Assembly: GCA_044226015.1 (NCBI GenBank)
Contig: JBGAHS010000002.1
Coordinates: 787,435-851,434 of the forward strand
Reading direction: 5' to 3'
Source: Candidatus Obscuribacteraceae bacterium
GTDB taxonomy: Bacteria > Cyanobacteriota > Vampirovibrionia > Obscuribacterales > Obscuribacteraceae
Length of the DNA: 64,000 nucleotides
Below the pieces are notes generated by a model that did no database searches, was not told where the DNA came from, and saw only the letters and a program-made list of their open reading frames with translations. Positions within the stretch are counted from its first letter, which is position 1. Each line of letters begins with the position of its first letter. This document shows, piece by piece, positions 17,552 through 53,148 of this stretch. Position numbers and translations under genes: made by a program.

Positions 17552-17686
17552 TTTGATACTTTGCAGAGAGGGAAGAAGAAAGACCAATGGTGCTGAAAGT
17601 GCGGTGCAAATTGACCATGAAGGATGTGGTCAATTTATGAACCTACCTCTCATATACCGCGCATTAGGGAATAAACTACTACCAAA

Positions 17687-20236
17687 CTAACGCAACAATT
17701 GTGAAGCACGTTCATCGTCTTCTCGCGCACGCGCTTCGTCCTTCATTTGAAGAAACAACTTTGCTCTCTGCTGATAAATGAACGCATCATTGGGCGAGAT
17801 TTCGATTGCCTTACTGAAATCATCCAGTGCTTCAGCAAATTTCCCAGAATCACGATGCAACATTCCTTGCAGGTAATAAAAATCAGCCTTCGTAATGCTG
17901 AGGTATGACTCAATGGGAATTTTCTCTTTTGCCTTAGCAAGGAACGAAGCAGCAGATTTAAGATCCTTTCGCTGTAAACTAGCAAGAGCCTTTGCGCAAA
18001 AATATGGGTACCCCTTATCCTTTGCTGGCACACGCTCAGCAAAGCGATCAGCTTGATCAGGATCATTGGTAAGACTGCAAAGCCAAGACATATTCAGGAG
18101 TGCTGTCCCATACTCAGGAGAGCGAGAAACACACTCCTCCAGAGCCTTTCTAGCCTCTGCGTAGCGCTGCAATTTGTACAAGGAAAATCCCTTATTGTTC
18201 AATGAGATTATTTCACCTGGTCGCAGCTTAAGTTCTGCTTCGCTGTCCTCAAGCTCTTTCCGCCACTCACCCAGACAACCGTACAAATAACCACGGTCCT
18301 CATGAAAGAACCAGGACCTTGGTCCAACAGAGACCGCTTTCTCGTAAAGCTGGATTGCTTCGTTTATGTGACCTTTACGGCTGACTCCAAGCGCCCTCTG
18401 TCCATATCCATAGCTATTCTTAGGGTCTAGCTCGATAGCGCGATCAGCATCTGAGATACACTTCTCATAATCACGCTTAACAAAATGGTACCAGGCACGG
18501 TTACTATAGGCTGATGATACTTCGGGATTTGCTTTAACAGCATCGTCTGAAACCTGCAATGCTTTATCAATGTTTCCCTGGGCCTCGTATACCCGACCCA
18601 GTTGTTGAGACACGAACAGAGAGCTCGGTGAAAGCTCAAGAGCTTTGAGGCAATTTCTTTCGGCTGACTTGTAGTCTTTGGCTTTGCAATAGGCGGCTCC
18701 GATACGCGCATAAAGCGAGGCAATAGAATCAGGGAGAGAATCGTTAACATTGGTAGCCCTGGGCACCCCCGACAAATAACCAATGCTGTTCTGGTATTGG
18801 CAAATCGCTTTAGCCCAGTCTTCGCGGCTCTCATAGACCGATGCTTTAAACCCATAGACTAAGGTTGGTCTCAAAGTTTTGCACTGACCAATGGTCTGCA
18901 AGGCAAAATCATATTTACACTCACGCTGCGCAATTTGGGCCTTGAAATACAAAAGCTCTTCAGACTCTGGTGGCGAAGGAAAATTAGCTTCACTGACTTT
19001 CAAAAAACGCTTCGCCTCTTCCAATCGATCAAGAATAATCAAGCAATCTAGGCGCATGCTAAATGCAGAAAAATACTCACTCTTTTTCAACCGATTTGAT
19101 TTCAGCACTGCGTCTGTAACAGTGCTTACTGCCTTCAGCGCATCCACTAATCTTCCGTTGGTGAAATCACTCTCGGCTCGATTTAGAAGAAGTTTCGCCT
19201 GGCTTCTCGACAAACTGCGGACATCCATCAATTGCCCCTGAGCTTTCTCAATTCCGGCAGGATTCTTGCGCGCTGAACGCTCAGCAGACGTGGACATCCA
19301 GTACAGAATAGGAATTAGAGCAATAACCAGAGCAGCCAGACATATTTGCAAAGAAAGCCCTGTTTTTTGTGATTTCGTAGATTTCTTGTTTTCTGCTGCC
19401 GCTTCAATTGCAACAATAAACTCAGACATGTTTTGAAATCGGTCTTCAGGTTTTTTAGCAAGGGATTTGCGCAAGACTTCTATAAAACCAGCTGGCACTT
19501 TCGAAGAAAGTTTAGCAAGCTGCGGCTCTGGAGATTCATTAGTATGTTTGTAAATCAAACCTATGGAATTATCAGCATCGAATAGTTTTTCACCCATCAG
19601 CATCTCAAAAATGATGCATCCCAGTGCGTAGATATCGCAACGATGATCTACTGGCTTGCCAGCAATGAGCTCAGGAGAAATGTATCCAGCCGTTCCCAGA
19701 AGAAAACCAGTCTTTGTAAGTTTCTGCGACTGCGTGAGGTCGATAAACATCTTCGACAAACCGAAGTCAATGACCTTAACGAAGTCTGGCTCCGGTTTCT
19801 CTAACAAAAAAATATTTTCGGGTTTCAAATCGCGATGCACAATTCCCTGAGAATGCGCATCTTTCAAACCGATACAAATCTGCAAAACAATTCTTGAAAC
19901 ACGTTGCCATGGCATTGGTCCATCATTGATGAGTTTGCGAAGAGTCTGTCCTTCCATGTATTCACAAACAGCGTAAGGAACATCAGCAGCGGTTCTACCA
20001 ATGCTATAGATGGTCATAACGTGGGGACTGTTTAATTTTGCCAGAATTTTTGATTCACGAAAAAATCGCTCCATGTCTTCAGCATTACTCTGTGCATCGA
20101 TGTGTGGGATCTTTATCGCAACATCCCTTGACGCATCTAACTGGCGAGCACGGAAGACTGAACCCATGCCACCAACTCCAAGTAGAGAGATGATCTCAAA
20201 GCGCTCTTCAAAATTATCGCCAGGATTCAGATTCAT
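17687..20236 (-). CDS. Membrane Ser/Thr protein kinase with TPR region (tandem paralog)
   Basis: GVGGMG, HRDLKPEN, DFG; kinase domain and C-terminus closely resemble 14969..17551. Confidence 0.92.
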   Translation of the reverse strand: MNLNPGDNFEERFEIISLLGVGGMGSVFRARQLDASRDVAIKIPHIDAQSNAEDMERFFRESKILAKLNSPHVMTIYSIGRTAADVPYAVCEYMEGQTLRKLINDGPMPWQRVSRIVLQICIGLKDAHSQGIVHRDLKPENIFLLEKPEPDFVKVIDFGLSKMFIDLTQSQKLTKTGFLLGTAGYISPELIAGKPVDHRCDIYALGCIIFEMLMGEKLFDADNSIGLIYKHTNESPEPQLAKLSSKVPAGFIEVLRKSLAKKPEDRFQNMSEFIVAIEAAAENKKSTKSQKTGLSLQICLAALVIALIPILYWMSTSAERSARKNPAGIEKAQGQLMDVRSLSRSQAKLLLNRAESDFTNGRLVDALKAVSTVTDAVLKSNRLKKSEYFSAFSMRLDCLIILDRLEEAKRFLKVSEANFPSPPESEELLYFKAQIAQRECKYDFALQTIGQCKTLRPTLVYGFKASVYESREDWAKAICQYQNSIGYLSGVPRATNVNDSLPDSIASLYARIGAAYCKAKDYKSAERNCLKALELSPSSLFVSQQLGRVYEAQGNIDKALQVSDDAVKANPEVSSAYSNRAWYHFVKRDYEKCISDADRAIELDPKNSYGYGQRALGVSRKGHINEAIQLYEKAVSVGPRSWFFHEDRGYLYGCLGEWRKELEDSEAELKLRPGEIISLNNKGFSLYKLQRYAEARKALEECVSRSPEYGTALLNMSWLCSLTNDPDQADRFAERVPAKDKGYPYFCAKALASLQRKDLKSAASFLAKAKEKIPIESYLSITKADFYYLQGMLHRDSGKFAEALDDFSKAIEISPNDAFIYQQRAKLFLQMKDEARAREDDERASQLLR

Positions 20237-20637
20237 TTGGCTACATCGCGAAATTGAATAACAGCATGGCATTTTTCAGCAGTTCGAAATAGAGGTTTCC
20301 CTCAGACTCTTTTTCAAGCTGAAAACTATCATTGATCATATACCGCGCTTGAAGAAGAAATAAATTGAGAGTTGTGCACAGCAAGCGAGATAAACGGTAA
20401 GTCTTGGGTTGGATACTACCCAGAGAAAGATTCCAAACTCTAGCGCGTTAACAGAAAGAATCGCAGTTCTGAATGTTAGTGCAAGCGCGCAATACAATCA
20501 GCGAAGAACCCTGATGCTGAATTGTGCATTCTTGCAATGCCAGTGCCCGCACACTTTTGCAATGCCAGTCAAATAAAGCAAGCTCAACAGCAACCTCGCG
20601 CATTCAGACCAGGAAACTTAAAAACATAAATTCAAAA

Positions 20638-20708
20638 AGCGACCAGTGGGAATCGAACCCATATCTTCGTCCTGGCAAGGCGGAGTTTTACCATTAAACT
20701 ATGGCCGC
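20638..20708 (-). tRNA. tRNA-Gly(GCC), atypical with three C-A mismatches
   Basis: GCGGCCA TA GTTT AATGGTA AAAC T CCGCC TTGCCAG GACGA AGAT ATGGG TTCGATT CCCAC TGGTCGC T; no encoded CCA. Confidence 0.8.
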
Positions 20709-20713
20709 GTAAA

Positions 20714-20785
20714 AGCCGACAAGAGGATTTGAACCTCCAACAAACTGCTTACGAAGCAGCTGCTCTACCGTTGAGCTATGTCGGC
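20714..20785 (-). tRNA. tRNA-Thr(CGT)
   Basis: GCCGACA TA GCTC AACGGTA GAGC A GCTGC TTCGTAA GCAGT TTGTT GGAGG TTCAAAT CCTCT TGTCGGC T; full cloverleaf. Confidence 0.93.
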
Positions 20786-20787
20786 AA

Positions 20788-20858
20788 AGCCCACAATCAG
20801 AATCGAACTGATGTTTCTTCCTTACCATGGAAGTGTTCTACCATTGAACTATGCGGGC
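20788..20858 (-). tRNA. tRNA-Thr(GGT)
   Basis: GCCCGCA TA GTTC AATGGTA GAAC A CTTCC ATGGTAA GGAAG AAAC ATCAG TTCGATT CTGAT TGTGGGC T; full cloverleaf. Confidence 0.93.
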
Positions 20859-24455: not shown

Positions 24456-24503
24456 AACTGGTAGCGCACGGATTCCCCTTCTGTGCGTTACCAGTTTTTT
24501 TTT
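24456..24503 (+). terminator. Intrinsic terminator
   Basis: AACTGGTAGCGCACGGA...TCTGTGCGTTACCAG followed by a run of 9 T. Confidence 0.85.
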
Positions 24504-24640
24504 GCTATCTACAATTAAGCAACTTGTACTTTGGAGAAAGCGCCTGAACTAAAATAGAAACAAAAGTAGAAATACGATTGCGATCAAATCGCCAGCGATG
24601 ATAGGATGGTTCTACGACCCTTCAGAAGGGAGGAATTATC

Positions 24641-24901
24641 ATGACTGAAGAAGCAAAAAAACTCTATGAAATCGCCAGCAACACCGCCGTTAAATCCGCA
24701 GTGATGCACGTCCGAGTTAACGGACGAAGCAGAGACATAGCATTAGATCTTCTAGATATTTCCCCAAGCTCACCTGATGAATACATCAGAGAGAAGGTCG
24801 CTGCTTTTGTGGAATTGTCTCCGAAAGATCTTGAGTTCACAGTCGTAGAACGCCATGAAAATGGAAACATGACTGTGCGCCCAGAAGCGGTGTTCGGATG
24901 A
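24641..24901 (+). CDS. Small protein ending in Gly (RPEAVFG), candidate ubiquitin-like modifier
   Basis: 86 aa with strong RBS GGGAGG; beta-beta-alpha-beta-beta-like pattern; ATGA overlap with the next gene; same operon as ThiF. The Ubl identity is inferred. Confidence 0.65.
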   Translation: MTEEAKKLYEIASNTAVKSAVMHVRVNGRSRDIALDLLDISPSSPDEYIREKVAAFVELSPKDLEFTVVERHENGNMTVRPEAVFG

Positions 24902-25764
24902 AAAAGAGAGACGGATTCGATCCGCTCTCTCTTGTATCCAAAATTGCTGACAAAGAAAAGCAGCTAATCGGCTCAAAGTTTCTTGCGCCAAAATTAGGAA
25001 CAGGAAAAATTCGCCTGAAACTATCGGGAATCGCCTATCAGGTTGACGCCCCTGATAGCCCTGACGGTTGGGGAATATTCGAGCTAAAGGAAAATTCGAG
25101 GGCGACATATCTCGAAGCCGCACCACTAAACATGGTGCGGAACTATCTGCTTCTTTTGACGCAGGTCAGACTTGTTATTCTCGACAAATTCGAGAACGAT
25201 AACTGGTGGGCAATAGTCGCCGACCAGCAAGGACAAAAGCTACAGATTAACGGACCAGTGCCCGTACATTTAATTACACGCACAGCGCCATTCGAAACGG
25301 TTTACAGCCGCTTCGATGGAGCACAATTTTGGTTTGAATCAACAGACCGAAAGCGCGACCCGATGGTAGCAAACGAGTTACGAAAGTCACTTGAGAAAAA
25401 TACCGACCCGGCAGAACTTCAGTGCAAAGGCGCCGTGCCACAAGAGCGGCTCGCTTACAAGATCTTACATATGCGAAAAAATAAGGAGCGCGAAACTCCT
25501 GAGCCTCAAGACAACCGCAGTCGTATAAGTCGTGCGCTCGCTCACTCCGGCGCCGAACTTGATTCATTCTGGCAAGAACGCGATAGTAGTGTGACTACAG
25601 TTCGTTTTCGCATGGGAGATCAAGTGCGCGCTGTGAGTGTAAACACCGACAATCTTTCCGTTATAAGTTCGGGAATTTGTTTATCAGGAAGAGACAGCGA
25701 TTTCGACCTGAGCAGCCTTGTTGGGGTATTAAAAGAAGCAGAAGAAGATTACGACTACTACTAA
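24898..25764 (+). CDS. Hypothetical protein with C-terminal SGICLSGxD Cys motif
   Basis: 288 aa, translationally coupled to the upstream gene. Confidence 0.75.
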   Translation: MKKRDGFDPLSLVSKIADKEKQLIGSKFLAPKLGTGKIRLKLSGIAYQVDAPDSPDGWGIFELKENSRATYLEAAPLNMVRNYLLLLTQVRLVILDKFENDNWWAIVADQQGQKLQINGPVPVHLITRTAPFETVYSRFDGAQFWFESTDRKRDPMVANELRKSLEKNTDPAELQCKGAVPQERLAYKILHMRKNKERETPEPQDNRSRISRALAHSGAELDSFWQERDSSVTTVRFRMGDQVRAVSVNTDNLSVISSGICLSGRDSDFDLSSLVGVLKEAEEDYDYY

Positions 25765-25783
25765 GTCCGGCAATAGCTTATGG

Positions 25784-26455
25784 ATGAGTCCAACAAAAAA
25801 AATCGAGCGAGCAAGAATGAGCAAACTTCATCACGAGAACATACACCGCGGCAGCGAAGCAATGAAAATGATTGCAAACCAACGACTCCATATTTGCGGA
25901 GCAGGCGCGATCGGCTCAAACCTGGCAATGAACTTAGTTAGAAGCGGATTCAAAAACCTGGTAATTATCGACAAAGACCGCGTTGAAGAAAAGAATCTGA
26001 GCACCCAGGCATATGGGCTTGACGATGTCGGCGGCAAGAAAGCAGACCTTCTAAGAAATTTGATCTTTCGCGACCTGGCCGAGAGTATAGACGCCCGCGC
26101 CGAAGAGCTGACCCACAATAATGTGAGCAAACTCCTAAAAGGAGCAAGCCTCGTGCTTGATGCTTTCGACAACGCCGCCTCGCGAAAGATTGTCTACGAA
26201 TTCTGCAAAGAAAATAGAATTGATTGCCTTCATGCTGGCGTGAATGGAGATTTTGCCGAGGTACGCTGGAACGAAAGCTACATCGTTCCACAAGAAAATG
26301 GACAAGACATCTGCGATTACCCGCTGGCGAGAAACTTGATCTTATTAACAGTTTCTGTGTGCAGCGAAACCCTTGTAAATTTTGTTCTCAAAACAAAGAA
26401 AGACAGTTTTTCAATCACACTGGGCGACATGTCCATAAATCACGAAACAGATTAG
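25784..26455 (+). CDS. ThiF/MoeB/E1-family adenylyltransferase
   Basis: GAGAIGS, DKDRVEEKNLSTQ, KK, DAFDN motifs; no CxxC zinc pairs. Confidence 0.9.
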   Translation: MSPTKKIERARMSKLHHENIHRGSEAMKMIANQRLHICGAGAIGSNLAMNLVRSGFKNLVIIDKDRVEEKNLSTQAYGLDDVGGKKADLLRNLIFRDLAESIDARAEELTHNNVSKLLKGASLVLDAFDNAASRKIVYEFCKENRIDCLHAGVNGDFAEVRWNESYIVPQENGQDICDYPLARNLILLTVSVCSETLVNFVLKTKKDSFSITLGDMSINHETD

Positions 26456-26475
26456 ACCAAGTGACCTCAGTAATA

Positions 26476-26504
26476 TTGACACACACACTTGCCTCTAATA
26501 AGAT
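26476..26504 (+). promoter_or_regulatory. Sigma70-like promoter P1 of the ncRNA array
   Basis: TTGACA-N17-TAAGAT. Confidence 0.7.
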
Positions 26505-26555
26505 GCCATAAGTGGTTGAGGTCATTTTCTGAGACCTCTCCGATAAGAGGAAAAA

Positions 26556-26640
26556 GCGTGAACGAAGACGGTCCGAGTTTTACAGCTTCAACTCGCCAGC
26601 AGGCGCTCGGCTAATAGCCGCTGCGTCCGTTTCAGCACGC
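26556..26640 (+). ncRNA. Y-RNA-like structured RNA A (family II)
   Basis: Closing stem GCGTG/CACGC; GAAGACGGTCCGAG...CAACTCGC...CTCGGCTAATAGCCG, shared with RNA C. Confidence 0.6.
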
Positions 26641-26673
26641 CTCGACACGCCACCACATTCGATACCAAACAAT

Positions 26674-26702
26674 TTGACAAAGCTTCTCTTACCTTGTAGG
26701 GT
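26674..26702 (+). promoter_or_regulatory. Sigma70-like promoter P2
   Basis: TTGACA-N17-TAGGGT, just upstream of RNA B. Confidence 0.55.
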
Positions 26703-26710
26703 AGTGATTA

Positions 26711-26805
26711 CCGCGTGTGTTCCGACACGTGGAGCCTTACAATCAGGTACTCACTGAGCTGAATCTTTACGCAGCGCGACAAGCTCCACGAACTTACACA
26801 GGCGG
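26711..26805 (+). ncRNA. Structured RNA B (divergent family I)
   Basis: CCGCGTGTG...CGTGGAGCcTTACAAT...GCTCCACGAACTTACACAGGCGG, nested stems. Confidence 0.6.
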
Positions 26806-26824
26806 CACTAAAAGGATGGTCATT

Positions 26825-26900
26825 GTGGCAGAAGACGGCCCGACACCGACAACTCGCTCTCACCTGGCACTCGGCTAATGCCGTTGTGCTGCTTTGCCAC
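26825..26900 (+). ncRNA. Y-RNA-like structured RNA C (family II)
   Basis: Closing stem GTGGCA/TGCCAC; GAAGACGGCCCGA...CAACTCGC...CTCGGCTAATGCCG. Confidence 0.6.
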
Positions 26901-26937
26901 GCGCAAAATGCGCCACCATATTTAGTATCATTTTCTG

Positions 26938-26966
26938 TTGACAGATTTGCAATTTCGATCTATTAT
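26938..26966 (+). promoter_or_regulatory. Sigma70-like promoter P3
   Basis: TTGACA-N17-TATTAT, about 8 nt before RNA D. Confidence 0.8.
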
Positions 26967-26974
26967 CAAAATTA

Positions 26975-27110
26975 CCAACTGTACTCAAACATTTGGAGCA
27001 TACAATCGCTTAGAACGAAAAGGTCGTGGGTTCGAATCCCACCGGGGCAGATGGCCCCGTAGCTCAGTGGATAGAGCGTTAAACTCTGCTCCCACAACTC
27101 GTACAGATGG
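26975..27110 (+). ncRNA. YrlA-like Y RNA D with circularly permuted tRNA module
   Basis: CTGTAC/GTACAG and GGAGC/GCTCC stems enclose a T arm (GTGGG TTCGAAT CCCAC), a loop-closed acceptor stem (CGGGGC agatg GCCCCG) and a D arm (TA GCTC AGTGGATA GAGC). Confidence 0.85.
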
Positions 27111-27233
27111 CATCGTTTAAGTAAGAGGAGGTCGCCAGTCGTTATAGTGGACACGGGTGACATAACATGGATCGATCCGAAACACGCGCCCGGTAGTGAC
27201 TGGAGCGCGTGCTCCTCGTTTAAATCGCATGCC
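27109..27233 (+). ncRNA. Long-hairpin structured RNA E
   Basis: Nested pairs GGCAT/ATGCC, GAGGAG/CTCCTC, CCAGTCGTTAT/GTAGTGACTGG. Confidence 0.55.
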
Positions 27234-27256
27234 ACTACATATGGTGCAACATTTAT

Positions 27257-27285
27257 TTGACAAACACCATTCGGCGATCTAAATT
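27257..27285 (+). promoter_or_regulatory. Sigma70-like promoter P4
   Basis: TTGACA-N17-TAAATT, just before RNA F. Confidence 0.7.
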
Positions 27286-27291
27286 AGTATT

Positions 27292-27423
27292 ACTGCCTGT
27301 ACTCAAACAGACTGAGCTTACAATCTGGTACATTTTCCGTAACTGGAGAATGAGGTTCGAATCCTCCCCTGGGCGGGGTTCCGTCCATCAAAACAAACAG
27401 CTCTTTCAACTCGTACAGGCAGT
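27292..27423 (+). ncRNA. Y-RNA-like RNA F (family I) with T-arm module
   Basis: ACTGCCTGTAC/GTACAGGCAGT 11-bp stem, GAGC/GCTC stem, internal GAGG TTCGAAT CCTC. Confidence 0.75.
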
Positions 27424-27432
27424 GAATTTTAC

Positions 27433-27570
27433 ACCAATGACTCGATGCACCAGCGAACGCGCATTGTTCCAACATTGACTCATAGGTGAGCTACTGGACC
27501 CAGGGCACCGTCCCGAGGGTCCCCGTAGACTTGGAAGAGTCGTCAGGTTTGCTTCTGCTCGAATTGTGGT
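27433..27570 (+). ncRNA. Possible long-hairpin RNA G
   Basis: Nested pairs ACCA/TGGT, AGCGAAC/GTTTGCT, TTCCAA/TTGGAA. Confidence 0.4.
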
Positions 27571-27583
27571 AATCTGGTTATAC

Positions 27584-27660
27584 GCCTGTACTCACTGCTC
27601 GAGCTTACAAACCTTTTCAAGTTAGAAACAGCTCTGGCGACTCGTACAGGCCCTTTTTTT
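27584..27660 (+). ncRNA. Minimal family I RNA H followed by a U-tract
   Basis: GCCTGTACTCA...GAGCTTACAA...AACAGCTC...ACTCGTACAGGC, then cc and a T run. Confidence 0.7.
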
Positions 27661-27668
27661 GCAAATTT

Positions 27669-29426
27669 TTGGTGAACACAATGAACAACGAGATCATTAA
27701 ATCTCTAGTAGATCTGGCCGTGCAGTCATTGCGCTCAATTGAGAATGAGCTGTTTGGCTCAAGACCCAACACGGCGCAGACACCACAGAGCCAATATCAG
27801 ACCACGTTCAACAGAAGCAATGGACGGGCACAAAGCAATAGGCGCACTAACAGCCGAAGAAGAACAGCACTCAATAGCAGCATTAGCAAAAGCAATGAAG
27901 AGGTAAGCAGCATGTTTGAATCACTAATAAATCAAACAGCTAATTCAAGTGAACAAGATTTCCGTCTGGCGATTCTCAACTCGTTGCTGCGCACACCACA
28001 CAGAGAGATCGAACCCTACATCCCTCTCTTTCGCTATGTGCATGACAGAGACCCTCTCTTCTTCGCGCACCTGGCTGTGTGGTACTTCGAAAACGGCACA
28101 GTGAGAGACTTGAAGCAACTTTTCGTCGCTTTTCTAGCTGTTTCAAAATTCTCAGACGAATTTCGCAGCGCCGGTGCAGCAATGCTACAAAAGATGGCAC
28201 CTTTCGAAGTAGAAAGAGTTCTTTCAATTATCAAAGGTCGCAAAACAAATGACGGAAAGAATGTCTCAGGTATTGTCGATACCGTACCACGTTCAGTGAA
28301 AACTACTATCGAACATTACTTGCGTGAACGCGAAAGCAATCGCGAAAATTTCGACCGTGTAGTTTTGCATGCACGCAAACCACTGAAAACACTTTATGCC
28401 TCACTGCGCATAAAGCCTGGTGAACACGCGCAGAAGGTGCTTTTCGACAATACTCCACCAGAGGACAGCAAACTATTTGCCCTCAAACTTATCGCAAAGA
28501 CTGATGACCCAACAGAGCAAGCAAAACTCATCGTTGAGCATGAGATTCCATACCGAGTGGCAATCTCAGGTTTGAAAAACGTGACACCTTCGGTTCTTAC
28601 AGCGCTTGTTTGCGCTATGACACCACAGGAGGTCATCAACAACCTTTCAAGCTTGCAAAAACGCGGGGCTATGCAAAACGAAGACTTGCGAAAAGTGATT
28701 GAATCAAAACTTGCCGATGCACAATCGGACAAGCGTGTTTCAGCTTTGAAAACCAGACAGGCACTTAAATCTGCAAATATCGATGAAAGCCTCGCTAAGA
28801 AAGTTGAGGCAGTCGGCGATAAGCAGATCAAAAACAAAGCCAAGATCAAAAAATCTACAGCATTATTGATCGATAAGTCTGGCTCGATGGAGATTGCAAT
28901 TGAAGTCGGTAAACAAACTGCGGCAATCATTGCACCAATTTGTGAAGCCGGTCTCTCTGTTTATGCTTTCGACACCATGTCTTACAAGATTGAACCTAAA
29001 ACAGGAAACAACTTATCTGATTGGGAGAAAGCATTCAAAGGCATCGCCGCTGGCGGTGGTACTTCGTGTGGTGTCTCAATCGAGGCGATGAGAAAACAAA
29101 AAGTAATTGCAGAGCAAATCATCATGGTCACCGACCAGGAAGAAAACAACCAGCCATACATGGCTACGGCTCTGCAAGCTTATGCAAATGAGTTCGGAGC
29201 AACTCCGGACATCATCATCGTGAACGTGGGACGCCACTCTCAGAGATTGGAGAAATCTCTAAGGCATGAGAACATCGCGGTCGACACCTTTGATTTCAAC
29301 GGCGACTACTACAGCTTGCCTAGCTTGCTGCCAATGCTTGCCGGTGGAACAAGGCTAGACTTGTTGATGGAAATCATGGATGTTCCATTGCCAGAACGCA
29401 GATTGCGCACACCTGCGATTGTGTGA
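27669..29426 (+). CDS. Ro60/TROVE-like helical domain plus vWA protein
   Basis: vWA MIDAS residues DKSGS...GGT...TD. The helical region has TROVE-like segments DPLFFAHLAVWY and MTPQEVINNL. Lies next to Y-like RNAs. Start may be 27669, 27681 or 27912. Confidence 0.78.
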   Translation: MVNTMNNEIIKSLVDLAVQSLRSIENELFGSRPNTAQTPQSQYQTTFNRSNGRAQSNRRTNSRRRTALNSSISKSNEEVSSMFESLINQTANSSEQDFRLAILNSLLRTPHREIEPYIPLFRYVHDRDPLFFAHLAVWYFENGTVRDLKQLFVAFLAVSKFSDEFRSAGAAMLQKMAPFEVERVLSIIKGRKTNDGKNVSGIVDTVPRSVKTTIEHYLRERESNRENFDRVVLHARKPLKTLYASLRIKPGEHAQKVLFDNTPPEDSKLFALKLIAKTDDPTEQAKLIVEHEIPYRVAISGLKNVTPSVLTALVCAMTPQEVINNLSSLQKRGAMQNEDLRKVIESKLADAQSDKRVSALKTRQALKSANIDESLAKKVEAVGDKQIKNKAKIKKSTALLIDKSGSMEIAIEVGKQTAAIIAPICEAGLSVYAFDTMSYKIEPKTGNNLSDWEKAFKGIAAGGGTSCGVSIEAMRKQKVIAEQIIMVTDQEENNQPYMATALQAYANEFGATPDIIIVNVGRHSQRLEKSLRHENIAVDTFDFNGDYYSLPSLLPMLAGGTRLDLLMEIMDVPLPERRLRTPAIV

Positions 29427-29535
29427 GCACGCCAACCAAGCGAACCAAAAGCGCTGCTCTTGCAAATAGCGAGAACAGCGCTGCGCTTGCTTCTGGTGCT
29501 CACCTGGTGGCGCCATCAGGCTTCTAGTTCCCTCC

Positions 29536-29570: not shown

Positions 29571-30341
29571 CTAGAATTTTATTTCTTTCGGCTCTTGGTT
29601 GACTTTGACTTTGCGATCGGAACTGCCATCGCCTCTCCTTCCCGCAAACTTATCCATCAGCAGCGCCTTCTCGTCCGACGTTAGTTCTGGTCCAACTTTT
29701 TTCTGAAAATTGAGGTCTTTCTCCCAAAGCTTGCGGGCTTGCTCATCGTGAGGGAAGGCTAGCTTACTACTCAAGCGAGACGCTTCCTGCGGAGAAAGTG
29801 GCTCGCCTTTGCCGTACTGAGCTTTCAGGTCGCGCTCATGCAAAATACGGTAGGAGTCATCTTTGCTGTCAGGAAACGCCAGCTTACTGAAGAGTTTTGC
29901 GCGTTCTTCGCCCGTTAACTCAGGACCTTTCGCATCTGGGGGCTGAGACAACAAATCCTTCTCATGGAGCTTTCTATATGAAGCATCCTTCTCATCCGGA
30001 AACGCAAGCTTTCCATTTAATTTGGCATTATCCTCTTTACTGAGAGGTTCGCCAATGCCTCGATCAGCTTTCAATCTCCGCTCTGCAAGATCCCGAAATT
30101 CTCCATCCGCAGGGTTCGGGAAAGTCCTCCACCCATATAATTTCGCCGTCTCCTCATTGCTGAGCTTAGGACCTTGCCCAAGGTCTGAAAACCTCTCTTT
30201 ATCCGCAAGTTTGCTTATGTCCTCGGGTGGCGGATAAGTCTGCCGCTCGTTGTCCCTGAAAGCCGAACTTTCGCTTTGTTTTGGAGCATCGCTTCTTTCA
30301 GCTCCCGCGCTAGGCGCTGGATTTTCAACCCTATCTGCCAT
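29571..30341 (-). CDS. Hypothetical protein with about 4.5 copies of a 40-aa repeat
   Basis: Repeats of G(E/P)xL(S/T)xE(E/D)xAKLxxKLAFP...YRxLHE(K/R)DL; ATG at 30341 after GAGGA. Confidence 0.75.
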   Translation of the reverse strand: MADRVENPAPSAGAERSDAPKQSESSAFRDNERQTYPPPEDISKLADKERFSDLGQGPKLSNEETAKLYGWRTFPNPADGEFRDLAERRLKADRGIGEPLSKEDNAKLNGKLAFPDEKDASYRKLHEKDLLSQPPDAKGPELTGEERAKLFSKLAFPDSKDDSYRILHERDLKAQYGKGEPLSPQEASRLSSKLAFPHDEQARKLWEKDLNFQKKVGPELTSDEKALLMDKFAGRRGDGSSDRKVKVNQEPKEIKF

Positions 30342-30556
30342 AAGAACATCCTCAAGTCTGCTAAGGCTATTATCGACAAAAAAGCGCAAACCCAAACCTG
30401 GATCCGCCTTTTGCCCTTCTCCCATATATTTTCGGGATCGCGAAACTTTCCTGTCCCGTTCGTGTCTCTGTACCAAAGCCTCGTATGGCTATTCCGATCA
30501 TATGGCGCTAACGCTTAAAACGACACGGATATGGCATAATCCCGATAGGTGGCAGC

Positions 30557-32857
30557 TTGGAGAATCTACTCTCTTTGACAGACGCTCAAGAAATTAGAGC
30601 AGATAACGGTGAAGTCCAGGTTGGACAAATATTCGAAGGTCGCTTCGAAATTTTGTCTGTGTTGGGTCAGGGCGGCATGGGCATGGTCTATCGAGCCCGC
30701 CACACACACATGGACAAAATCGTTGCCATGAAAACTCTTGTGCAAGGCGCCGTCTATGATGACATCAGTTTCCTGCGCTTTGAACAAGAAGCACGCACCG
30801 CGGCATCATTAGAGCACCCAAACATCATCACGATTTACGATTTCGGGCGAACGAAACAGGGGCTCGCCTACCTTGTGATGGAATACATCAACGGTCCTAC
30901 ATTAGAAGATGTAATCGTCGAAATCGACAGCCTGCCGCTGCCTCGGTTCATGCGCATTTTCGGACAAGCTTGCGAAGGCATGCAGCATGCGCACAAAAAA
31001 GGAATCATTCATAGAGACTTGAAACCCAGCAATCTTATGCTCTACGACGCAGAAGATTTTGTTGATAAGGTGAAAATAGTAGACTTCGGACTTGCAAAGC
31101 TAGCTCAAGACGACACACAGAAGTTGACGCAGTCCGGCATGGTTATGGGAAGTCCGCTCTACATGAGCCCTGAACAGGGGCGGGGTGACGAACTCGATAC
31201 TCGATCTGACATTTACTCACTGGGATGCGTGATGTATGTTGCCTTGTCCGGTCATGTTCCGCTAAAAGGCAACAATTCAATGGCAACAATTTATAAGCAC
31301 ATCTCTGATGTGCCACCATTGATGTCACAGGTTGCACCAGACATTCACATTCCTCGGCGCTTAGAGCAGCTCGTGATGCGCACACTGGAAAAAGACCCTG
31401 CATTGCGGCCTCAAAGCATGGCTGAATTGCATTATGAAATGAACGAGGCGATAACATCTACCGACTCTACAAAACCAGTCGTGATGCCAACTGTACCGGC
31501 AGATTTGGGCAAGACGGTTCCAAGCGGGCATGGCATAAATGCTGCAAACATGGCGCACTTAGATTCGAAAGGGTCCGCGGGTGCTGGAGCTCAAGCGGGC
31601 GCTCAGACTGGAGGCGATCAAGCAAAGCCTCAATCATCGCATCAGCCGCCTCAGGCTAACGGACAGCCAACAAACAATTTCAAAATTATTCTTGGTGCAG
31701 CCGCAGTGGTGCTCCTTGGTTTTGCATTTATGCAGATGTCGTCCCACAACGGATCAGCCCCGCAATCTCAACCATCTAAAGCAATCGATTCCGCGACACA
31801 AAGCACGAATAATTCCAGTGCAAAGCAGAATGGCGAAACGAAATCTTCTGCACAAATTTCTGCTTCAACGAACAATACTTCGAACAACGATAGCTCCGGG
31901 AAAAACGCAACAGCAAGCTCCGGTCCTAGCCAGATCAAACCTGGCGACATGAACGCGACTCAAATAAGTTCCACATCTAAACCTGGAAACACAAAGCCAG
32001 AAAATTCTAAGCAATCATCAAGCAGCTCATCCACCTCAGCAACAGATTCCGCGAATAGTGCAGATTCAGTCGCGGCAGCTAAGGGGTCATCAGCAAATAG
32101 CTCAAAAGCTTCAGCTCCGACAAACGGCACACCGACACCAAAGGTGGTGCCAATAGCTTCAGCCAGCATTCCGTCTCAAATAAAGGGCGAACTTTCGACT
32201 GAAAAGTCCATGGCTCATAAGTTGGTGGCACAGTATGGCGCACAAGCAACTGCTGCACTAAAAGCAGGCGACCTCGATGAAGCACTTCCCTGGTTAGAAA
32301 AGCAACTGCAGCAAGAGCGCATTATATACGCAAGCGAAATCGACCCTCACATGATTGTCACGTTCGCTCAATTGATTCATGCCACACGTGGAGATCAGTT
32401 CGCTGAAGGCACAAAGCAAGCGCAATACCTCGAGCTGGCGCTCAAAGCCTTCGCGAAGGATAAGCAGACCGCCATCGCTTTTGTTGACTCAAAATCACAT
32501 TCATGGAAAATTTGGAAATCACTTGCTGATGCATGTTTTACAAAAGCAAATTTGCTGCCCGGACCATTCAAGCTAGCCTACCAAGAATGGGCAACGGTAT
32601 TTTACTCACTGGCAGAGTCCAAATATAACGGCGCTAAAGATCGCAATTATTTTGAAATGCTATCGAAGACTTACATTTGCGCGAAGAAAAGTGGCAATCT
32701 GGAACTTTGCGGAAAGGTAGGAGCAATTCTAAGCGCAAATGGACAACAGGTGCCCAGCGCACCAGACGAGATGCAGCGACGCTTGTTAAATCGACAGGGA
32801 CCGCTCAGAGAATTTGGCCGACGTTTCCGCAGACCAAATCTTGAGCGCCAGCAATAA
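30557..32857 (+). CDS. Membrane Ser/Thr protein kinase with Ser/Asn-rich linker
   Basis: GQGGMG, HRDLKPSN, DFG, YMSPE; transmembrane segment; low-complexity linker. Confidence 0.92.
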   Translation: MENLLSLTDAQEIRADNGEVQVGQIFEGRFEILSVLGQGGMGMVYRARHTHMDKIVAMKTLVQGAVYDDISFLRFEQEARTAASLEHPNIITIYDFGRTKQGLAYLVMEYINGPTLEDVIVEIDSLPLPRFMRIFGQACEGMQHAHKKGIIHRDLKPSNLMLYDAEDFVDKVKIVDFGLAKLAQDDTQKLTQSGMVMGSPLYMSPEQGRGDELDTRSDIYSLGCVMYVALSGHVPLKGNNSMATIYKHISDVPPLMSQVAPDIHIPRRLEQLVMRTLEKDPALRPQSMAELHYEMNEAITSTDSTKPVVMPTVPADLGKTVPSGHGINAANMAHLDSKGSAGAGAQAGAQTGGDQAKPQSSHQPPQANGQPTNNFKIILGAAAVVLLGFAFMQMSSHNGSAPQSQPSKAIDSATQSTNNSSAKQNGETKSSAQISASTNNTSNNDSSGKNATASSGPSQIKPGDMNATQISSTSKPGNTKPENSKQSSSSSSTSATDSANSADSVAAAKGSSANSSKASAPTNGTPTPKVVPIASASIPSQIKGELSTEKSMAHKLVAQYGAQATAALKAGDLDEALPWLEKQLQQERIIYASEIDPHMIVTFAQLIHATRGDQFAEGTKQAQYLELALKAFAKDKQTAIAFVDSKSHSWKIWKSLADACFTKANLLPGPFKLAYQEWATVFYSLAESKYNGAKDRNYFEMLSKTYICAKKSGNLELCGKVGAILSANGQQVPSAPDEMQRRLLNRQGPLREFGRRFRRPNLERQQ

Positions 32858-32996: not shown

Positions 32997-33290
32997 ATGG
33001 CAGTCAAGAAAAAAGCGAAGAAAGAGGCAATAGAGCGGCTTGCTATGCGAGTCCCCTCCGCTCTCAAGGAAAAATACACGCGTGCAGCCGAGCTGCGCGG
33101 GGAGACTTTTAGCGGCTGGGCCAAGCATGTGCTTGACGAGGCAGCCGAAAAACAGCTCCGCGAGCATGAGTTTACAGATATGGCGCTTGCTGATCGTATT
33201 GCCTTCATGGAGAGTGTACTCTCGCCGCCTAAGCCAGCACAAGCAGCGGTACAGGCGGCAAAGCGGTACAAGAAAGTATTCGGTCTCTAG
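32997..33290 (+). CDS. DUF1778/TacA-type RHH antitoxin
   Basis: ERLAMRVPSALKEKYTRAAELRGET...FMESVLSPPKP; abuts a GNAT gene. Confidence 0.85.
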   Translation: MAVKKKAKKEAIERLAMRVPSALKEKYTRAAELRGETFSGWAKHVLDEAAEKQLREHEFTDMALADRIAFMESVLSPPKPAQAAVQAAKRYKKVFGL

Positions 33291-33851
33291 TTGCAAACTG
33301 AGCTTACTTTTAACCCAATTGAGGCGCTTGACCCCAAACGCCACAACCGGAACGCATTTACTTGTGGAGTAAAGCAGCTTGATGTTTTCATCCAGCAGAA
33401 AGCGCGTAAGGAAGCGCCCGATCTTTCGCTGACTTTTGTGCTTACCTGCCGCGAGGAGCCTGGAGAAATCCTGGGCTTCTACAGCTTGAGCGCGACTAAA
33501 CTCAAGGCGGATGATTTGTCTGCGGAGTTGAAAAAAAAGATCGCGCAGTACGGTTGTGTACCAGCAACCCTGCTCGGCCGGCTCGCTACTGCGATCAAAT
33601 ACCAGCGGAACAAGCAGCTGCGTATCGGCGAAATGCTCCTCATTGATGCCATGTTAAGAACCCATCTCGCTGCCCGTCAGGTCGCATCTTTTGGATTGAT
33701 CGTCGACGTGTTGAAGACGGAAGCATCCGACCCGACCGGATTCTACCGCCGTTACGGATTCATTGATTGCCAACAGTCTACCGATCGAATGTACATGCCA
33801 ATGAAAACAATTGAAGATACCCTGCGCGAAGCCGCTATTACTGGCGGTTAG
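33291..33851 (+). CDS. GNAT acetyltransferase toxin (AtaT/TacT-like)
   Basis: HNRNAFTCGVKQLD, ILGFYSL, VPATLLGRLA, IGEMLLIDA, FYRRYGF. Confidence 0.88.
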   Translation: MQTELTFNPIEALDPKRHNRNAFTCGVKQLDVFIQQKARKEAPDLSLTFVLTCREEPGEILGFYSLSATKLKADDLSAELKKKIAQYGCVPATLLGRLATAIKYQRNKQLRIGEMLLIDAMLRTHLAARQVASFGLIVDVLKTEASDPTGFYRRYGFIDCQQSTDRMYMPMKTIEDTLREAAITGG

Positions 33852-35038: not shown

Positions 35039-35308
35039 ATGGATTGGATTGACACCGGCAGAGAATCTGAACCAGATAGCAAAAAACGAGTTTGCTTAGG
35101 GTCGGCTGTGTCAGAAAACAAGGTCAGGTACAGGATCATGAAAAACAAGTTGGGACAGATTCTGCTAGACCCCGTTAAATCCGTTCCCGCCTACGAAGCG
35201 TGGGTTTGGGAAAATCCGGAAATAATCGCAGCCTTTAACCGCAGCGTTTTACAAGCTGAAAAAGGAGAGACCACTGAAATTGATCTTTCAGAATTCGAGG
35301 ATGATTAG
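35039..35308 (+). CDS. Putative antitoxin (AbrB/MazE-like N-terminus)
   Basis: DSKKRVCL motif, WVWENPE...AEKG region and acidic tail; 3 nt upstream of the toxin. Confidence 0.65.
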   Translation: MDWIDTGRESEPDSKKRVCLGSAVSENKVRYRIMKNKLGQILLDPVKSVPAYEAWVWENPEIIAAFNRSVLQAEKGETTEIDLSEFEDD

Positions 35309-35311
35309 AGA

Positions 35312-35674
35312 GTGCAGTTTCGACTCGCCTACACCCAAGAGGCTATGCGCCAATTCAGAGAGCTTCAGCAAGATAAGAATCAAGAGAAGAGATTCAAAGC
35401 TGTCGTAAAAGCTTTGCGTTTTCTGACAGAAAACCCCAAGCATCCATCACTAAATACTCACAAGTTCGAATCGCTAATAGGTCCAGCTGGAGTAGAGGTG
35501 TTTGAGGCTTACGCCGAAGATAAGACAGCAGGCGCTTATAGAATATTTTGGTGCTATTATCCGCCGCGGAAAGCAAAAACATCTAAGAGCCAATCTCGAA
35601 AAACGGGTTTGGATAAGCAGGCAGAAGATAGACCCACAATAACAATCTTAGCAATCACCGCGCATCCAGATTAG
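35312..35674 (+). CDS. RelE/ParE-superfamily toxin
   Basis: NPKHPSLNTH, AYRIFW, ITILAITAH. Confidence 0.75.
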   Translation: MQFRLAYTQEAMRQFRELQQDKNQEKRFKAVVKALRFLTENPKHPSLNTHKFESLIGPAGVEVFEAYAEDKTAGAYRIFWCYYPPRKAKTSKSQSRKTGLDKQAEDRPTITILAITAHPD

Positions 35675-49000: not shown

Positions 49001-49448
49001 TGATGTTTGAAGGTTTTATATCTCGATGAACAATCTTCTTCTCGTGGGCATGTTCGACTCCACTCAGCAAATCGGAGAAGAAAGAAAAAAAGTCGGGTAG
49101 GGAAAGCTTTGATTCGTCAGCAAGAATTTCAGCCAGCGTTCTACCTTCAATATAATCCATAACCAGGTATAGTCGACCATCTGCTGTTACTCCGCTGTTA
49201 TACACGCGTGCTATTGCAGGATGCGACAAAGAAGAACATAGTGCAGCCTCCGTCTTAAACCGCTGAATAGCTAACTCACTCGTCAAAAGATGAGGGTGAA
49301 TAACTTTTACCACTATGTCACGCTCAAGAAGTAAATCTCGCGCTTTGTATGCACTGGAAGAAGCGCCTTTCCCGAGAAGCTCGCCTAAGATGTAGCGCTT
49401 ATCAAAAGACTTTTCTTGAATTTCGTCATTTTCACCTGGAGAAGACAC
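46005..49448 (-). CDS. Membrane Ser/Thr kinase with long helical/TPR-like region
   Basis: HRDIKPSN, DFG, YMSPE; transmembrane segment. Confidence 0.9.
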   Translation of the reverse strand: MSSPGENDEIQEKSFDKRYILGELLGKGASSSAYKARDLLLERDIVVKVIHPHLLTSELAIQRFKTEAALCSSLSHPAIARVYNSGVTADGRLYLVMDYIEGRTLAEILADESKLSLPDFFSFFSDLLSGVEHAHEKKIVHRDIKPSNIIVKRENGVLNAVLIDFGLAKSIEAEAQSSTNTGLLLGSAGYMSPEQCRGEKSIDQRSDIYSIGCVMSEALIGTAPFSGGTDLEVMSRHLEITQKRLGFLKKLPPSLAKLIKKCLERDAQDRYQNLAELKHDFEQCKVSKDCLKKSISDAHQDHKRSIAVLALLICCAGFFYYISSTKKARSKSPDLADVLPNRGIQKVNSRLPIRIEELTKKIGDINTKSTKANQDADQALEYIDNWEKRYAKQFDATTSDAVKALRVQQLCKLDRMDEAKVIVESLFATSFFPRASAALYAYMSRLVELRQFREAIVIYGEFEKKFPEIHREKMQQVIFLRLLGDCYMGLGDYKSAKLEYSKSWKVAQVSGDAYIANDDEIAGASRMLTACFALRDERGINECVASVDRFFENNEVGKAKADLALTRLFAVYGYTERLINHAQRARTVFKKNAMKTQLQEADRYLANQFLAAKKYAEAQKLEEEFFSIAPSVKGKVMALTMLSVNALQRGDKAAESKYIAKAFDLAKKALDKFSSGDKSQSKFDCEDAYQSAISRVIDMYSEDLQYMQALDTAEDGLKLYGKQFPEIGLFLYRKKLDLTNVLGFTNADLLSEHVKGIEELLKEMQEQPISSKQNSYILEGKAEIARLRELLFRLQNDVKMLGAVAKSFFDEYRNDIRAEPYLVEQAYVYCSALLELKQYAELKTFLNANSSLMMNVKMSNLSEWIEKSSNFVLYQISVQNYEEAQHASLASIEDLRTREPEQRWLQFRFYLLLAEVYGKTKQADKRKQCLVSLKEIGNYPLADDRAVNAILNFVWTNYLLQPDRELALYCIDIIQNSAPESLKCLGPYRKSLLYLAGNELPQRITLLKQCLTMNKQQSLGMKVFYNDVKVELAVAYTDSKQWEEAKQCLNEVRRFAVESDSHDSWQKELKIGYVDHLMGNVYAAKKDNVQAIAYYKKAIAQFAKLGNNGLNKWTGSISAAISCAQEMKDESELQKLEALKKAGVSQR

Positions 49449-52700: not shown

Positions 52701-53148
52701 ATTGCCAGGTCCTTGGGGCTCCACCCTATGTACCCAGGACTGCAGCAGGATCACCACAGAGACGACCACCCGCACCGATGAGCGCCGTAGGCGGCAGCAG
52801 CGCTGCAGCTGATAAAGAAGTCCGATAAATCTCGCGATTTCCACAAAACTCATACAGGGGAACAACCGAGTTGTCTAAATTGCGATTGTGGCTGCTAGTT
52901 GCATGATGAAGAAAGAGCTAGCATTAATCGCAATTTTGCTCCCTTTGAGCCTGCCACCCAATTTGGCTCAGGGCTTCGGCGAAATGCCAAAAGAAATTTT
53001 CGGAAGAACAGAACGCACACACGAAGAGATCAAAGCTTTCAACAGAGAATTTGAGTTGAGACAGGCACTCATGGCGAGCATGTCGATACTGATCCCGCTA
53101 AAAGGCTTTGTTATCTGGCAACGGCGCAAACAAAGGATATCGAGCTAA

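Follow-up and report, generated by a model that had tools for sequence, protein, structure and literature searches.

Ro60/Rsr proteins combine a TROVE region with a vWA domain that carries an adhesion site dependent on metal ions (MIDAS), and their YrlA-class Y RNAs are small RNAs encoded upstream on the same strand; one RNA class contains a permuted module of T arm, acceptor and D arm, and at least one RNA has no tRNA module (PMC4201824, PMC12135203; here and below, published work is cited for the portions of its text that were available). All of these features recur in the locus described here, which occupies positions 24641 to 29426 of a 64,000-nucleotide stretch (the window) from a Candidatus Obscuribacteraceae bacterium. 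The locus joins a divergent Ro60 gene and an array of small RNAs to genes for a candidate ubiquitin-like protein (Ubl), a ThiF-family activating enzyme (E1) and a protein resembling conjugating enzymes (E2-like). Its Ro60 protein differs from the described ones in falling below the Pfam TROVE and NCBIfam Rsr thresholds and in being tied to a Ubl cascade. The RNAs differ as well: the Ro-binding motif of YrlA, GNCGAAN0-1G (PMC4201824), is present at the 5' side of just 1 of the 364 scaffold RNAs collected here, and loci contain up to seven RNAs, in several permutations and with anticodon arms.

The other half of the system resembles the Bil, Bub (6E) and CBASS Cap2/Cap3 cascades and the operons of Iyer et al. 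2006 (PMC1779556, 10.1101/2024.11.21.623953), in that Ubl, E1, E2-like and JAB genes are found together without a ligase (E3) gene, and in that Ubl precursors have tails where a JAB is present. Bub has a catalytic Tyr/Ser (10.1101/2024.11.21.623953), whereas the E1 found here is minimal and has a cysteine. The available portions of PMC1779556 do not mention TROVE, and those of 10.1101/2024.11.21.623953 do not mention RNA. Unlike these operons, the present cascade has an E2-like domain fused to two OB folds and has Ro60 and non-coding RNAs as partners. No BubE/DUF6527 was found among the named neighbours of the loci studied.

Urm1/TtuB-type sulfur carriers likewise place a Ubl and an E1 in a tRNA-related context; in contrast to them, the present system is found without a rhodanese or thiouridylase partner and has an extra cysteine protein and a JAB. 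TrcR of Anabaena represses rtcB and the spare-tRNA trn operon, and its site at the trn operon consists of tandem boxes (PMC10272220). Our system shares with the TrcR regulon the placing of TGTAGTAT boxes over the -10 element (PMC10272220, PMC8421152), as well as arrays of tRNA-shaped RNAs and an RNA-repair context (PMC10272220), but the RNAs here are best read as mimics, and the window has a different, palindromic operator. The strongly derepressed genes tabulated in the available part of PMC10272220 include several hypothetical proteins and none named as Ro-like or ThiF. The Nidhogg viruses of Helarchaeota, a single virus group, encode Ro60 (TROVE and vWA), an RNA ligase and a ThiF/E1-like protein; as far as the available text goes, these are treated separately, use of host ubiquitin is proposed, and they are not connected with any Ubl, E2 or RNA array of the virus (10.1101/2021.07.29.454249). 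A full-text literature search returned no account of a link between Ro60 and a Ubl, with this virus paper the nearest, in agreement with the preliminary description, whose author knew of no described system with this combination; there is a small but real chance that an earlier mention exists. In its workings the locus would resemble a cascade of the Bil/Bub type attached to a Ro60-Y RNA particle, yet judged by the features tested it is of neither the YrlA nor the Bub type. The system is real and widespread, apparently undescribed, and new as a combination.

Co-occurrence of the Ro60-like and ubiquitin-like genes

The distribution of the genes argues that the Ro ribonucleoprotein (RNP) and the Ubl cascade very probably constitute one coupled system. 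Whole-genome searches in a sample of 301 genomes found the Ro family in 35 and the E2-like gene in 35, with 34 in common; the Ubl and the E1 were found in 31 each, every one within the Ro set. All four genes occur in 29 genomes, so that 29 of the 35 Ro-family genomes carry all three enzyme-module genes, in some cases unlinked. Among the 266 genomes negative for the Ro family, just one has an E2-like gene, and this is a broken remnant. Broken or partial copies gather in the same genomes (G143, G243 and G297), and in genome G029 the Ro and Ubl genes lie at 6.0 Mb and the E2-like and E1 genes at 0.29 Mb of the same contig. Canonical TROVE genes form a separate set, present in 40 of the 301 genomes at different loci, and are not accompanied by the Ubl module; eight of these genomes also have the Ro family. 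We attach no p-value to these counts because kin genomes are not independent. Pairwise distances of the Ro, E2-like and Ubl proteins correlate (rho 0.71-0.83), a result that we set aside since kinship alone can produce it.

The same association is seen locally. Within 10 kb around the Ro-like gene in 80 GTDB loci, many of which end at contig ends, the Ubl was found in 51, the E2-like gene in 32, the E1 in 30 and all three in 24. By their record titles these loci come from Melainabacteria, oxygenic cyanobacteria, Acidobacteriota, Chloroflexota, Armatimonadota and Planctomycetota. Eighty metagenomic loci (6-kb flanks) gave 57 Ubl, 38 E2-like, 31 E1 and 9 JAB genes, and 19 viral loci gave 16, 16, 14 and 14, respectively. 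The gene order Ubl, Ro, E2-like, JAB, E1 is kept in viral contigs of up to 572 kb, and the 595-kb phage record LR756511 has all five genes in the same order together with scaffold RNAs and tRNAs. Overall the gene order is variable, and the two halves (Ro with Ubl, E2-like with E1) are often more than 10 kb apart. The gene beside the array and Ro is usually Ubl; that for the E2-like protein often lies directly 3' of Ro. The association of the ThiF genes with the vWA gene, proposed in the preliminary description from the window, was therefore borne out in several phyla and in phages, where the presence of one gene follows that of the others from genome to genome.

The Ro family comprises 1,537 proteins at E <= 0.001 among 7,998 candidates, and at least 502 Ro-family stretches were confirmed among 600 listed in GTDB; the closest named relatives of the window protein are from Obscuribacterales. 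Among the genes that recur as neighbours in the 80 loci, Tpt1/KptA is present in 12 and an RNA ligase in 6, while paralogs of L7/L12 and of EF-Ts are present in 19 and 8, respectively. Cyanobacterial arrays often contain the L7/L12 and EF-Ts paralogs within them, along with two unnamed conserved genes (24/80 and 9/80); such array-internal genes lie at L022:8352-8738, L019:11668-12270, L038:9363-9800 and L059:8278-9003.

Gene products and RNAs of the locus

The four open reading frames (ORFs) given in the preliminary description were found at their coordinates, all on the + strand, and the upstream terminator (stem at 24456-24496) and a weaker downstream hairpin were recovered. That description made no mention of the E2-like domain, the JAB of relatives, the anticodon-variable tRNA modules or the translation-stress operator. 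The GC content of the unit, 0.469, is close to that of the window (0.471). The features of the locus are as follows.

24456..24504, +, left boundary: intrinsic terminator belonging to the TPR gene upstream (stem of 17 pairs, T tract)
24641..24901, +, Ubl candidate, 86 residues, C-terminal ...AVFG (Gly invariant in aligned homologs)
24898..25764, +, E2-like protein, 288 residues, 4-nucleotide overlap with the Ubl gene (AlphaFold2 model, Cys261)
25784..26455, +, ThiF/E1 enzyme, likely start ATG 25817 (Pfam ThiF, E 1.3e-29)
26476..26504, +, Sigma70-type promoter at the start of the array (10/12 consensus matches)
26511-26645, +, segment of uncertain status behind the first promoter (z -1.0, no homolog)
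26649..26702, +, palindromic operator (GRYACYA-N4-TRGTRYC) and promoter of RNA 2 (weak -10 box, read from the sequence)
26711..26805, +, scaffold RNA 2: two-stem scaffold, variable domain with two hairpins (z -3.4)
26912..26966, +, operator and strong promoter of RNA 4 (11/12 promoter matches)
26975..27110, +, scaffold RNA 4: YrlA-like permuted tRNA module (Rfam YrlA match; 52-member alignment with covariation)
27125..27217, +, structured element unrelated to the scaffold, after the YrlA-like RNA (z -3.9; one homolog, L106:5288-5396, E 3.7e-7)
27231..27285, +, operator and promoter of RNA 6
27291..27424, +, scaffold RNA 6, with the remnant of a D loop, an anticodon-like arm, a T arm and a hairpin (z -4.5; homologs in many loci)
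27460..27550, +, probable degenerate scaffold copy (scaffold-like ends; z -1.1; no homolog)
27584..27651, +, scaffold RNA 8: short form without tRNA module, then T tract, directly 5' of Ro (z -3.7; 50-member alignment)
27681..29426 (ORF 27669-29426), +, divergent Ro60, TROVE and vWA (profile matches, HHalign, MIDAS)
29503..29520, +, hairpin 3' of the Ro gene, right boundary

The 585-residue ORF product had been described as Ro60-like, and this assignment holds along the whole length of TROVE and vWA, although the conserved core is only 504 residues long and starts at ATG 27912. Eight PDB sequences match a HMMER profile of 42 Ro-family sequences at E <= 10. They include Ro60 from human (E 3e-5), from a Thermus phage (E 4e-5) and from Xenopus as well as Rsr from Deinococcus; 9nen, 9l5y, 1yvp and 2nvo are among the entries matched. 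HHalign against an alignment of canonical TROVE proteins, built from the longest ORFs of 20 PF05731 loci, gave a 99.0% match (E 8.8e-18, 431 columns, residues 23-479) that spans both the helical TROVE region and the vWA domain. The MIDAS residues D321-S323-S325, T384 and D408 are invariant in 41/41 aligned Ro-family proteins. The window protein does not pass the curated models: there is no PF05731 match, and vWA_Ro60 and Rsr give 19 bits (cut-off 27.7) and 12.3 bits, respectively. By these profile comparisons it is a separate subfamily of Ro60/Rsr. The extension encoded from ATG 27681 (27681-27911) comprises an amphipathic helix followed by an Arg/Asn-rich stretch and has counterparts in the 11 long relatives inspected; ATG 27912 is a second good start, and two Ro isoforms may be made. 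The gene is single copy in its genome by paralog search, and no canonical TROVE gene was found there. The absence of rtcB from the window, stated in the preliminary description, was confirmed, yet the same genome has two rtcB loci elsewhere (G000:C11:876859-877995 and G000:C1:643595-644623).

The small protein ends in a Gly that is invariant in 52/52 and 41/41 aligned homologs; this is a single Gly preceded by conserved RP(E)A(V)(F/Y). Seven viral homologs have 1-4 residues beyond it, and such extensions occur in 5/19 loci with a JAB versus 0/19 without (p 0.046; all five are viral and non-independent). The alignment, read by eye, has a strand-strand-helix-strand-strand pattern, from which a beta-grasp fold is predicted. 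Sequence searches placed the small protein with no solved structure, Pfam family or MoaD protein, and in the ESM Atlas it matches only its own unnamed clusters; a match to uL23 was judged to be due to chance.

The AlphaFold2 model of the 288-residue protein is confident (predicted local distance difference test 88) and contains two OB folds at about residues 23-77 and 88-152 (OB matches Z 6-7), with conserved aromatic residues. Matches to the OB pair include domains of RNase R/II, cold-shock and IF1 type, and the pair resembles the protein-binding OB rings of proteasomal ATPases about as well. In the model the two folds are followed by a helical linker and a C-terminal helix, four strands, Cys261 and a further helix. 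Cys261 (codon 25678-25680) sits in a GICL motif; it is invariant in alignments of 48, 32 and 41 sequences and kept in 144 of the best 150 distant homologs. The C-terminal domain, which forms 949 clusters at 50% identity, has structural matches to the Cap2 E2 (Z 4.3, root-mean-square deviation 4.4 over 81 residues), UBE2S (Z 4.1, 3.7 over 78), FANCL (Z 4.4) and Ctf19-Mcm21 (Z 5.2). About 10 of the 50 best structural rows are of UBC/RWD type by title (Cap2, FANCL, Ctf19-Mcm21, Knl1, Tsg101 UEV); a second structural comparison added UBE2S and Ubc1, and all UBC/RWD matches lie at Z 3.5-5.2. With either E2-like model, Foldseek returned nothing at E <= 0.001; sequence searches with the domain found no solved relative, no Pfam E2 family (Prok-E2, UQ_con) matched among 138 E2-like members, and the ESM Atlas returned nothing usable. 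HHalign against 15 UQ_con and 2 Prok-E2_B proteins gave no signal (2/15 were in the wrong frame, and a reversed-profile control scored equally high). Because the structural matches tie with unrelated folds and the profile tests were negative, we label the protein 'E2-like' and not 'E2'. In three single proteins (P0190, P0220 and P0269) the E2-like domain is joined to E1, a JAB-like piece or part of Ro; each fusion was seen once and is possibly a frameshift or deletion artefact.

The adenylation motifs of the E1 (GxGxxG, D..D..E..N..Q, K, D-x-x-D-N, R) are invariant in 31/31 sequences, as is Cys177 (codon 26312-26314) within DICDYP. The enzyme is found without Zn-binding CxxC pairs, and its best PDB matches are Uba1/UBA6. 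From its position, Cys177 is probably equivalent to the crossover-loop cysteine. A Prok-JAB gene (E 3.3e-8) lies within the module in 7/80 bacterial loci, between the E2-like and E1 genes, and in 14/19 viral loci; a search of the window's genome found no JAB of the module's type.

Between the E1 and Ro genes, the preliminary description had placed about 1.2 kb of structured non-coding RNAs. Four scaffold RNAs are well supported (z -2.9 to -4.5 versus shuffles), not eight, and they do belong to a conserved family adjoining this Ro family. RNA 2 and RNA 6 have the UUACAAUC motif in common. The module of RNA 4 consists, in order, of a short anticodon-like arm (loop CUUAGAA), a T arm, a closed acceptor hairpin and a D arm; positions 24-84 match Rfam YrlA (RF02553) with E 5.3e-7 and 42.9 bits, under the gathering threshold of 69, and no match at gathering level was found in the eight loci checked. 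The stems of the element at 27125-27217 are kept in its L106 homolog though the sequences differ; it has no Rfam match, and its GUUAU loop could possibly pair with a downstream AUAAC to form a pseudoknot. Two further segments, 26555-26640 and 26822-26895, had been considered as canonical Y RNAs because of a GGUCCGA-like word. They fold no better than shuffles (z -1.0 and 0.0), have no homolog in the fetched loci, and owe their similarity to each other partly to a DNA operator, and they were dropped.

The scaffold was searched for as an outer stem, an AGC-WUACA motif, an inner stem and a RACUYG motif. In the 80 GTDB loci the pattern gave 225 matches on the Ro strand versus 10 on the opposite strand, with at least one match in 68 loci and at least two in 55; the background was 86 matches in both strands of an 8.19-Mb genome. 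The scaffold was found near 53/70 members of this Ro family versus 0/20 canonical Ro genes, for which only 1.5-kb flanks around the domain match were covered. In an alignment of 50 short forms, 12/15 pairs change on both sides, the covariation score is reached by 0/500 shuffles, and slid controls collapse; the outer stem and GC pairs are part of the search pattern, and the five covarying inner pairs are not. In 52 YrlA-like forms, 24/28 predicted pairs covary, including those of the T stem and acceptor hairpin. Among the 364 distinct scaffold matches, T precedes D in 68, D precedes T in 77, 73 have T only and 53 are short.

The class with D, anticodon and T arms comprises 75 RNAs, which were compared purely by position. 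Their anticodon stem is 4-5 pairs long in 74 cases; there is a pyrimidine at position 32 in 71, a U at position 33 in 68 and a purine at position 37 in 73. Positions 34-36 take 29 forms and differ within 22/23 multi-copy loci. The scaffold motif UACAUAC forms the 5' acceptor strand in 63/75 regardless of the anticodon, so that one acceptor strand spans anticodons for 13 amino acids and stop. Seven acceptor pairs are present in 4/75, CCA in 4/75, and A34 or a stop-reading anticodon in 15/75. ARAGORN calls a tRNA in 70/75, and several score as tRNA in Rfam. These RNAs are best read as tRNA mimics and not functional tRNAs; a tRNA-like piece may be released, since CCA addition can follow processing. 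In viral loci, too, ARAGORN places calls between Ubl and Ro (L082:8900-8970, L084:9647-9716, L088:9691-9762 and L092:9821-9895), with anticodons that are odd (att, tca, aag), and because the L084 call sits inside a scaffold match, these may be mimics as well.

A palindromic operator lies 7-9 nucleotides upstream of the -35 box in three RNA promoters of the window (26649, 26912 and 27231) and is also present in loci L003, L005, L106, L109, L116 and L117. With a matrix made from 13 sites of relatives only, the RNA 4 operator ranks first genome-wide; outside the array the top matches look like background, and a genome-wide regulon was not definable. The position upstream of -35 suggests an activator. 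The oxygenic cyanobacteria have a different arrangement, in which TrcR-type tandem TGTAGTAT boxes (a TTGAC promoter at most 3 kb upstream of Ubl, with a second TGTAGTAT-type box over the -10 element) occur upstream of the Ubl gene in 26/37 loci with Ubl. Three more were found in the remaining 1.34 Mb of these loci, all on the same strand. The plain 7-mer from PMC10272220 occurs within 250 nucleotides in 15/37 loci versus a 5.8% background, with one only beside the start codon. No tandem-box match was found in the window's genome, a lineage that uses the palindromic operator instead. The regulation of the cyanobacterial loci points to translation stress.

Readings of the probable coupling

The best explanation, to which we would give an even chance, is that a Ro RNP induced by translation stress recruits proteins that bind tRNA to a Ubl cascade. 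Such stress would switch on the whole unit, and the divergent Ro60 ring would bind the small RNAs via their common two-stem scaffold. The E1 would adenylate the C-terminal Gly of the small protein and hold it as a thioester on Cys177, from which it would move to Cys261 of the OB-OB-E2-like protein and then to a target; the JAB peptidase, where present, would trim precursors and remove the tag. These enzymatic steps are drawn from motifs and from the workings of the Bil, Bub and CBASS cascades. The Ro RNP would most likely take the E3 role, with the tRNA modules as baits by which tRNA-engaging proteins are brought to the charged E2 and tagged; anticodon nucleases and toxins would be the first expected targets and processing enzymes the second. 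No E3 gene is found, and the RNA repertoire keeps the features read by tRNA-attacking enzymes (anticodon loop, elbow) and not those that charging needs; for these two reasons the Ro RNP is our preferred candidate for the targeting device, and proteins that engage tRNA are our preferred targets. That other proteins are tagged under the direction of baits is tentative, and somewhat more probably wrong than right. An RNA-baited Ubl ligase, in which a Ro60 ring with interchangeable tRNA decoys replaces the E3 and the attacking nuclease or toxin is tagged and neutralised, is doubtful; if true, it would serve bacteria against ribotoxins under translation stress and huge phages against host tRNA-cleaving defences.

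Several points weigh against the explanation by a stress-induced Ro RNP feeding a Ubl cascade. The assignment as E2-like is based on topology, on context and on the motif around the cysteine, and the UBC/RWD matches (only Z 4.0-5.2) score level with unrelated folds, HPF/pY and VirB8 among them; for the small protein, beta-grasp is a prediction read from the alignment by eye; and the JAB is missing from the window and from most cyanobacterial loci (present in 7/80). Only one RNA in the window has a 7-nucleotide anticodon-like loop, and the anticodon variety of the family could be neutral drift of a loop needed for shape alone. The tandem-box pattern was written after the upstream sequences had been viewed, and the sampled genomes are related by kinship, so that their counts are not independent.

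The cascade might instead tag the Ro RNP itself, on the Ro protein or on something bound to it, for example an exoribonuclease, with the tag acting as a switch of RNA loading, localisation or turnover and the tRNA modules tethering partners as YrlA does. The adjacency of Ubl to the array and Ro, the frequent position of the E2-like gene directly after Ro, the nine lysines that are at least 80% conserved across the Ro family and the absence of a recurring variable target-recognition gene among the neighbours all fit such a switch. The conserved lysines may, however, simply bind RNA, and several RNAs with different anticodons or permutations per locus would be left unexplained; we regard self-tagging as rather unlikely but as a serious competitor. 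Eukaryotic DELTEX ligases carry out ester-linked ubiquitylation of nucleic acid ends, and the Ubl could similarly be attached to RNA: the OB folds would hold a damaged or uncharged tRNA, or a mimic presented by Ro, and the E2 cysteine would move the Ubl to the RNA 3' end or a base amine as a mark or shield for repair. The RNase R/II, cold-shock and IF1-type matches of the OB folds with their conserved aromatics, the RNA-repair neighbours and the TrcR-type control are in its favour, but the OB pair fits the proteasomal rings about equally and the characterised bacterial cascades, in the available text of 10.1101/2024.11.21.623953, tag proteins. This reading is unlikely, though like self-tagging it is a serious competitor.

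The preliminary description had left conjugation and thiocarboxylation side by side. Conjugation of the Ubl is probable over a sulfur relay, being favoured by the cysteines of E1 and E2-like protein and the JAB partner; thiocarboxylation is unsupported by any recurring sulfur-transfer gene. A relay in which the small protein becomes a ThiS/MoaD/Urm1-like thiocarboxylate and thiolates tRNAs or their mimics would suit a ThiF-family enzyme and a C-terminal Gly, and a cysteine desulfurase is present in 2/100 viral and metagenomic loci. The tail, however, has a single Gly and not Gly-Gly, the second invariant-cysteine protein is an obligatory partner, and rhodanese, TtuA/PP-loop, ThiG and MoaE are absent from the top recurring neighbour clusters of the 80 and 100 loci. 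Such a relay is unlikely, with little probability of being right. Equally unlikely, with a similarly slim chance, is that the Ro RNP and the Ubl cascade are independent and merely travel together under a common stress regulon. The variable gene order and the distances of more than 10 kb would be natural under independence, but the Ubl gene stays with Ro when the E2-like and E1 genes move away, presence and absence match almost perfectly even if the genes are unlinked, and the module is absent beside canonical Ro60.

Ro60 and Ubl conjugation are both ancient, and no system combining the two came up in our searches. Should the coupling prove mechanistic, the locus would exemplify protein tagging directed by RNA in bacteria and be a counter-defence candidate in huge phages. 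It would then also give tRNA mimicry by Y RNAs a role that can be tested, and likewise the Ro60 MIDAS site, which is said to have an unclear role in the available text of PMC12135203. A large RNA family that lacks annotation emerges from the analysis as well, and tRNA scanners miscall many of its members as tRNA genes. The cascade is minimal, consisting of three small proteins that could be rebuilt in vitro, and culturable filamentous cyanobacteria carry the locus.

Neighbourhood of the locus in the window

On the - strand at 20638-20858, 3.8 kb upstream of the unit, lie three ordinary tRNA genes (Gly, Thr, Thr). An ORF of 301 residues (29571-30476, -), which converges with the Ro gene, contains internal repeats with KLAFPD.KD motifs; neither Pfam nor NCBIfam gave a match to it. 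Two pairs on the + strand, at 32997-33851 and 35039-35674, look by eye like toxin-antitoxin pairs, one of a DUF1778-type protein with a GNAT and the other of a small antitoxin with a RelE-like protein; neither putative toxin has a Pfam match at E <= 1e-8. Five large Ser/Thr kinase genes, several of them with TPR repeats, are located at 14969-20272, 30557-32857 and 46005-52865.

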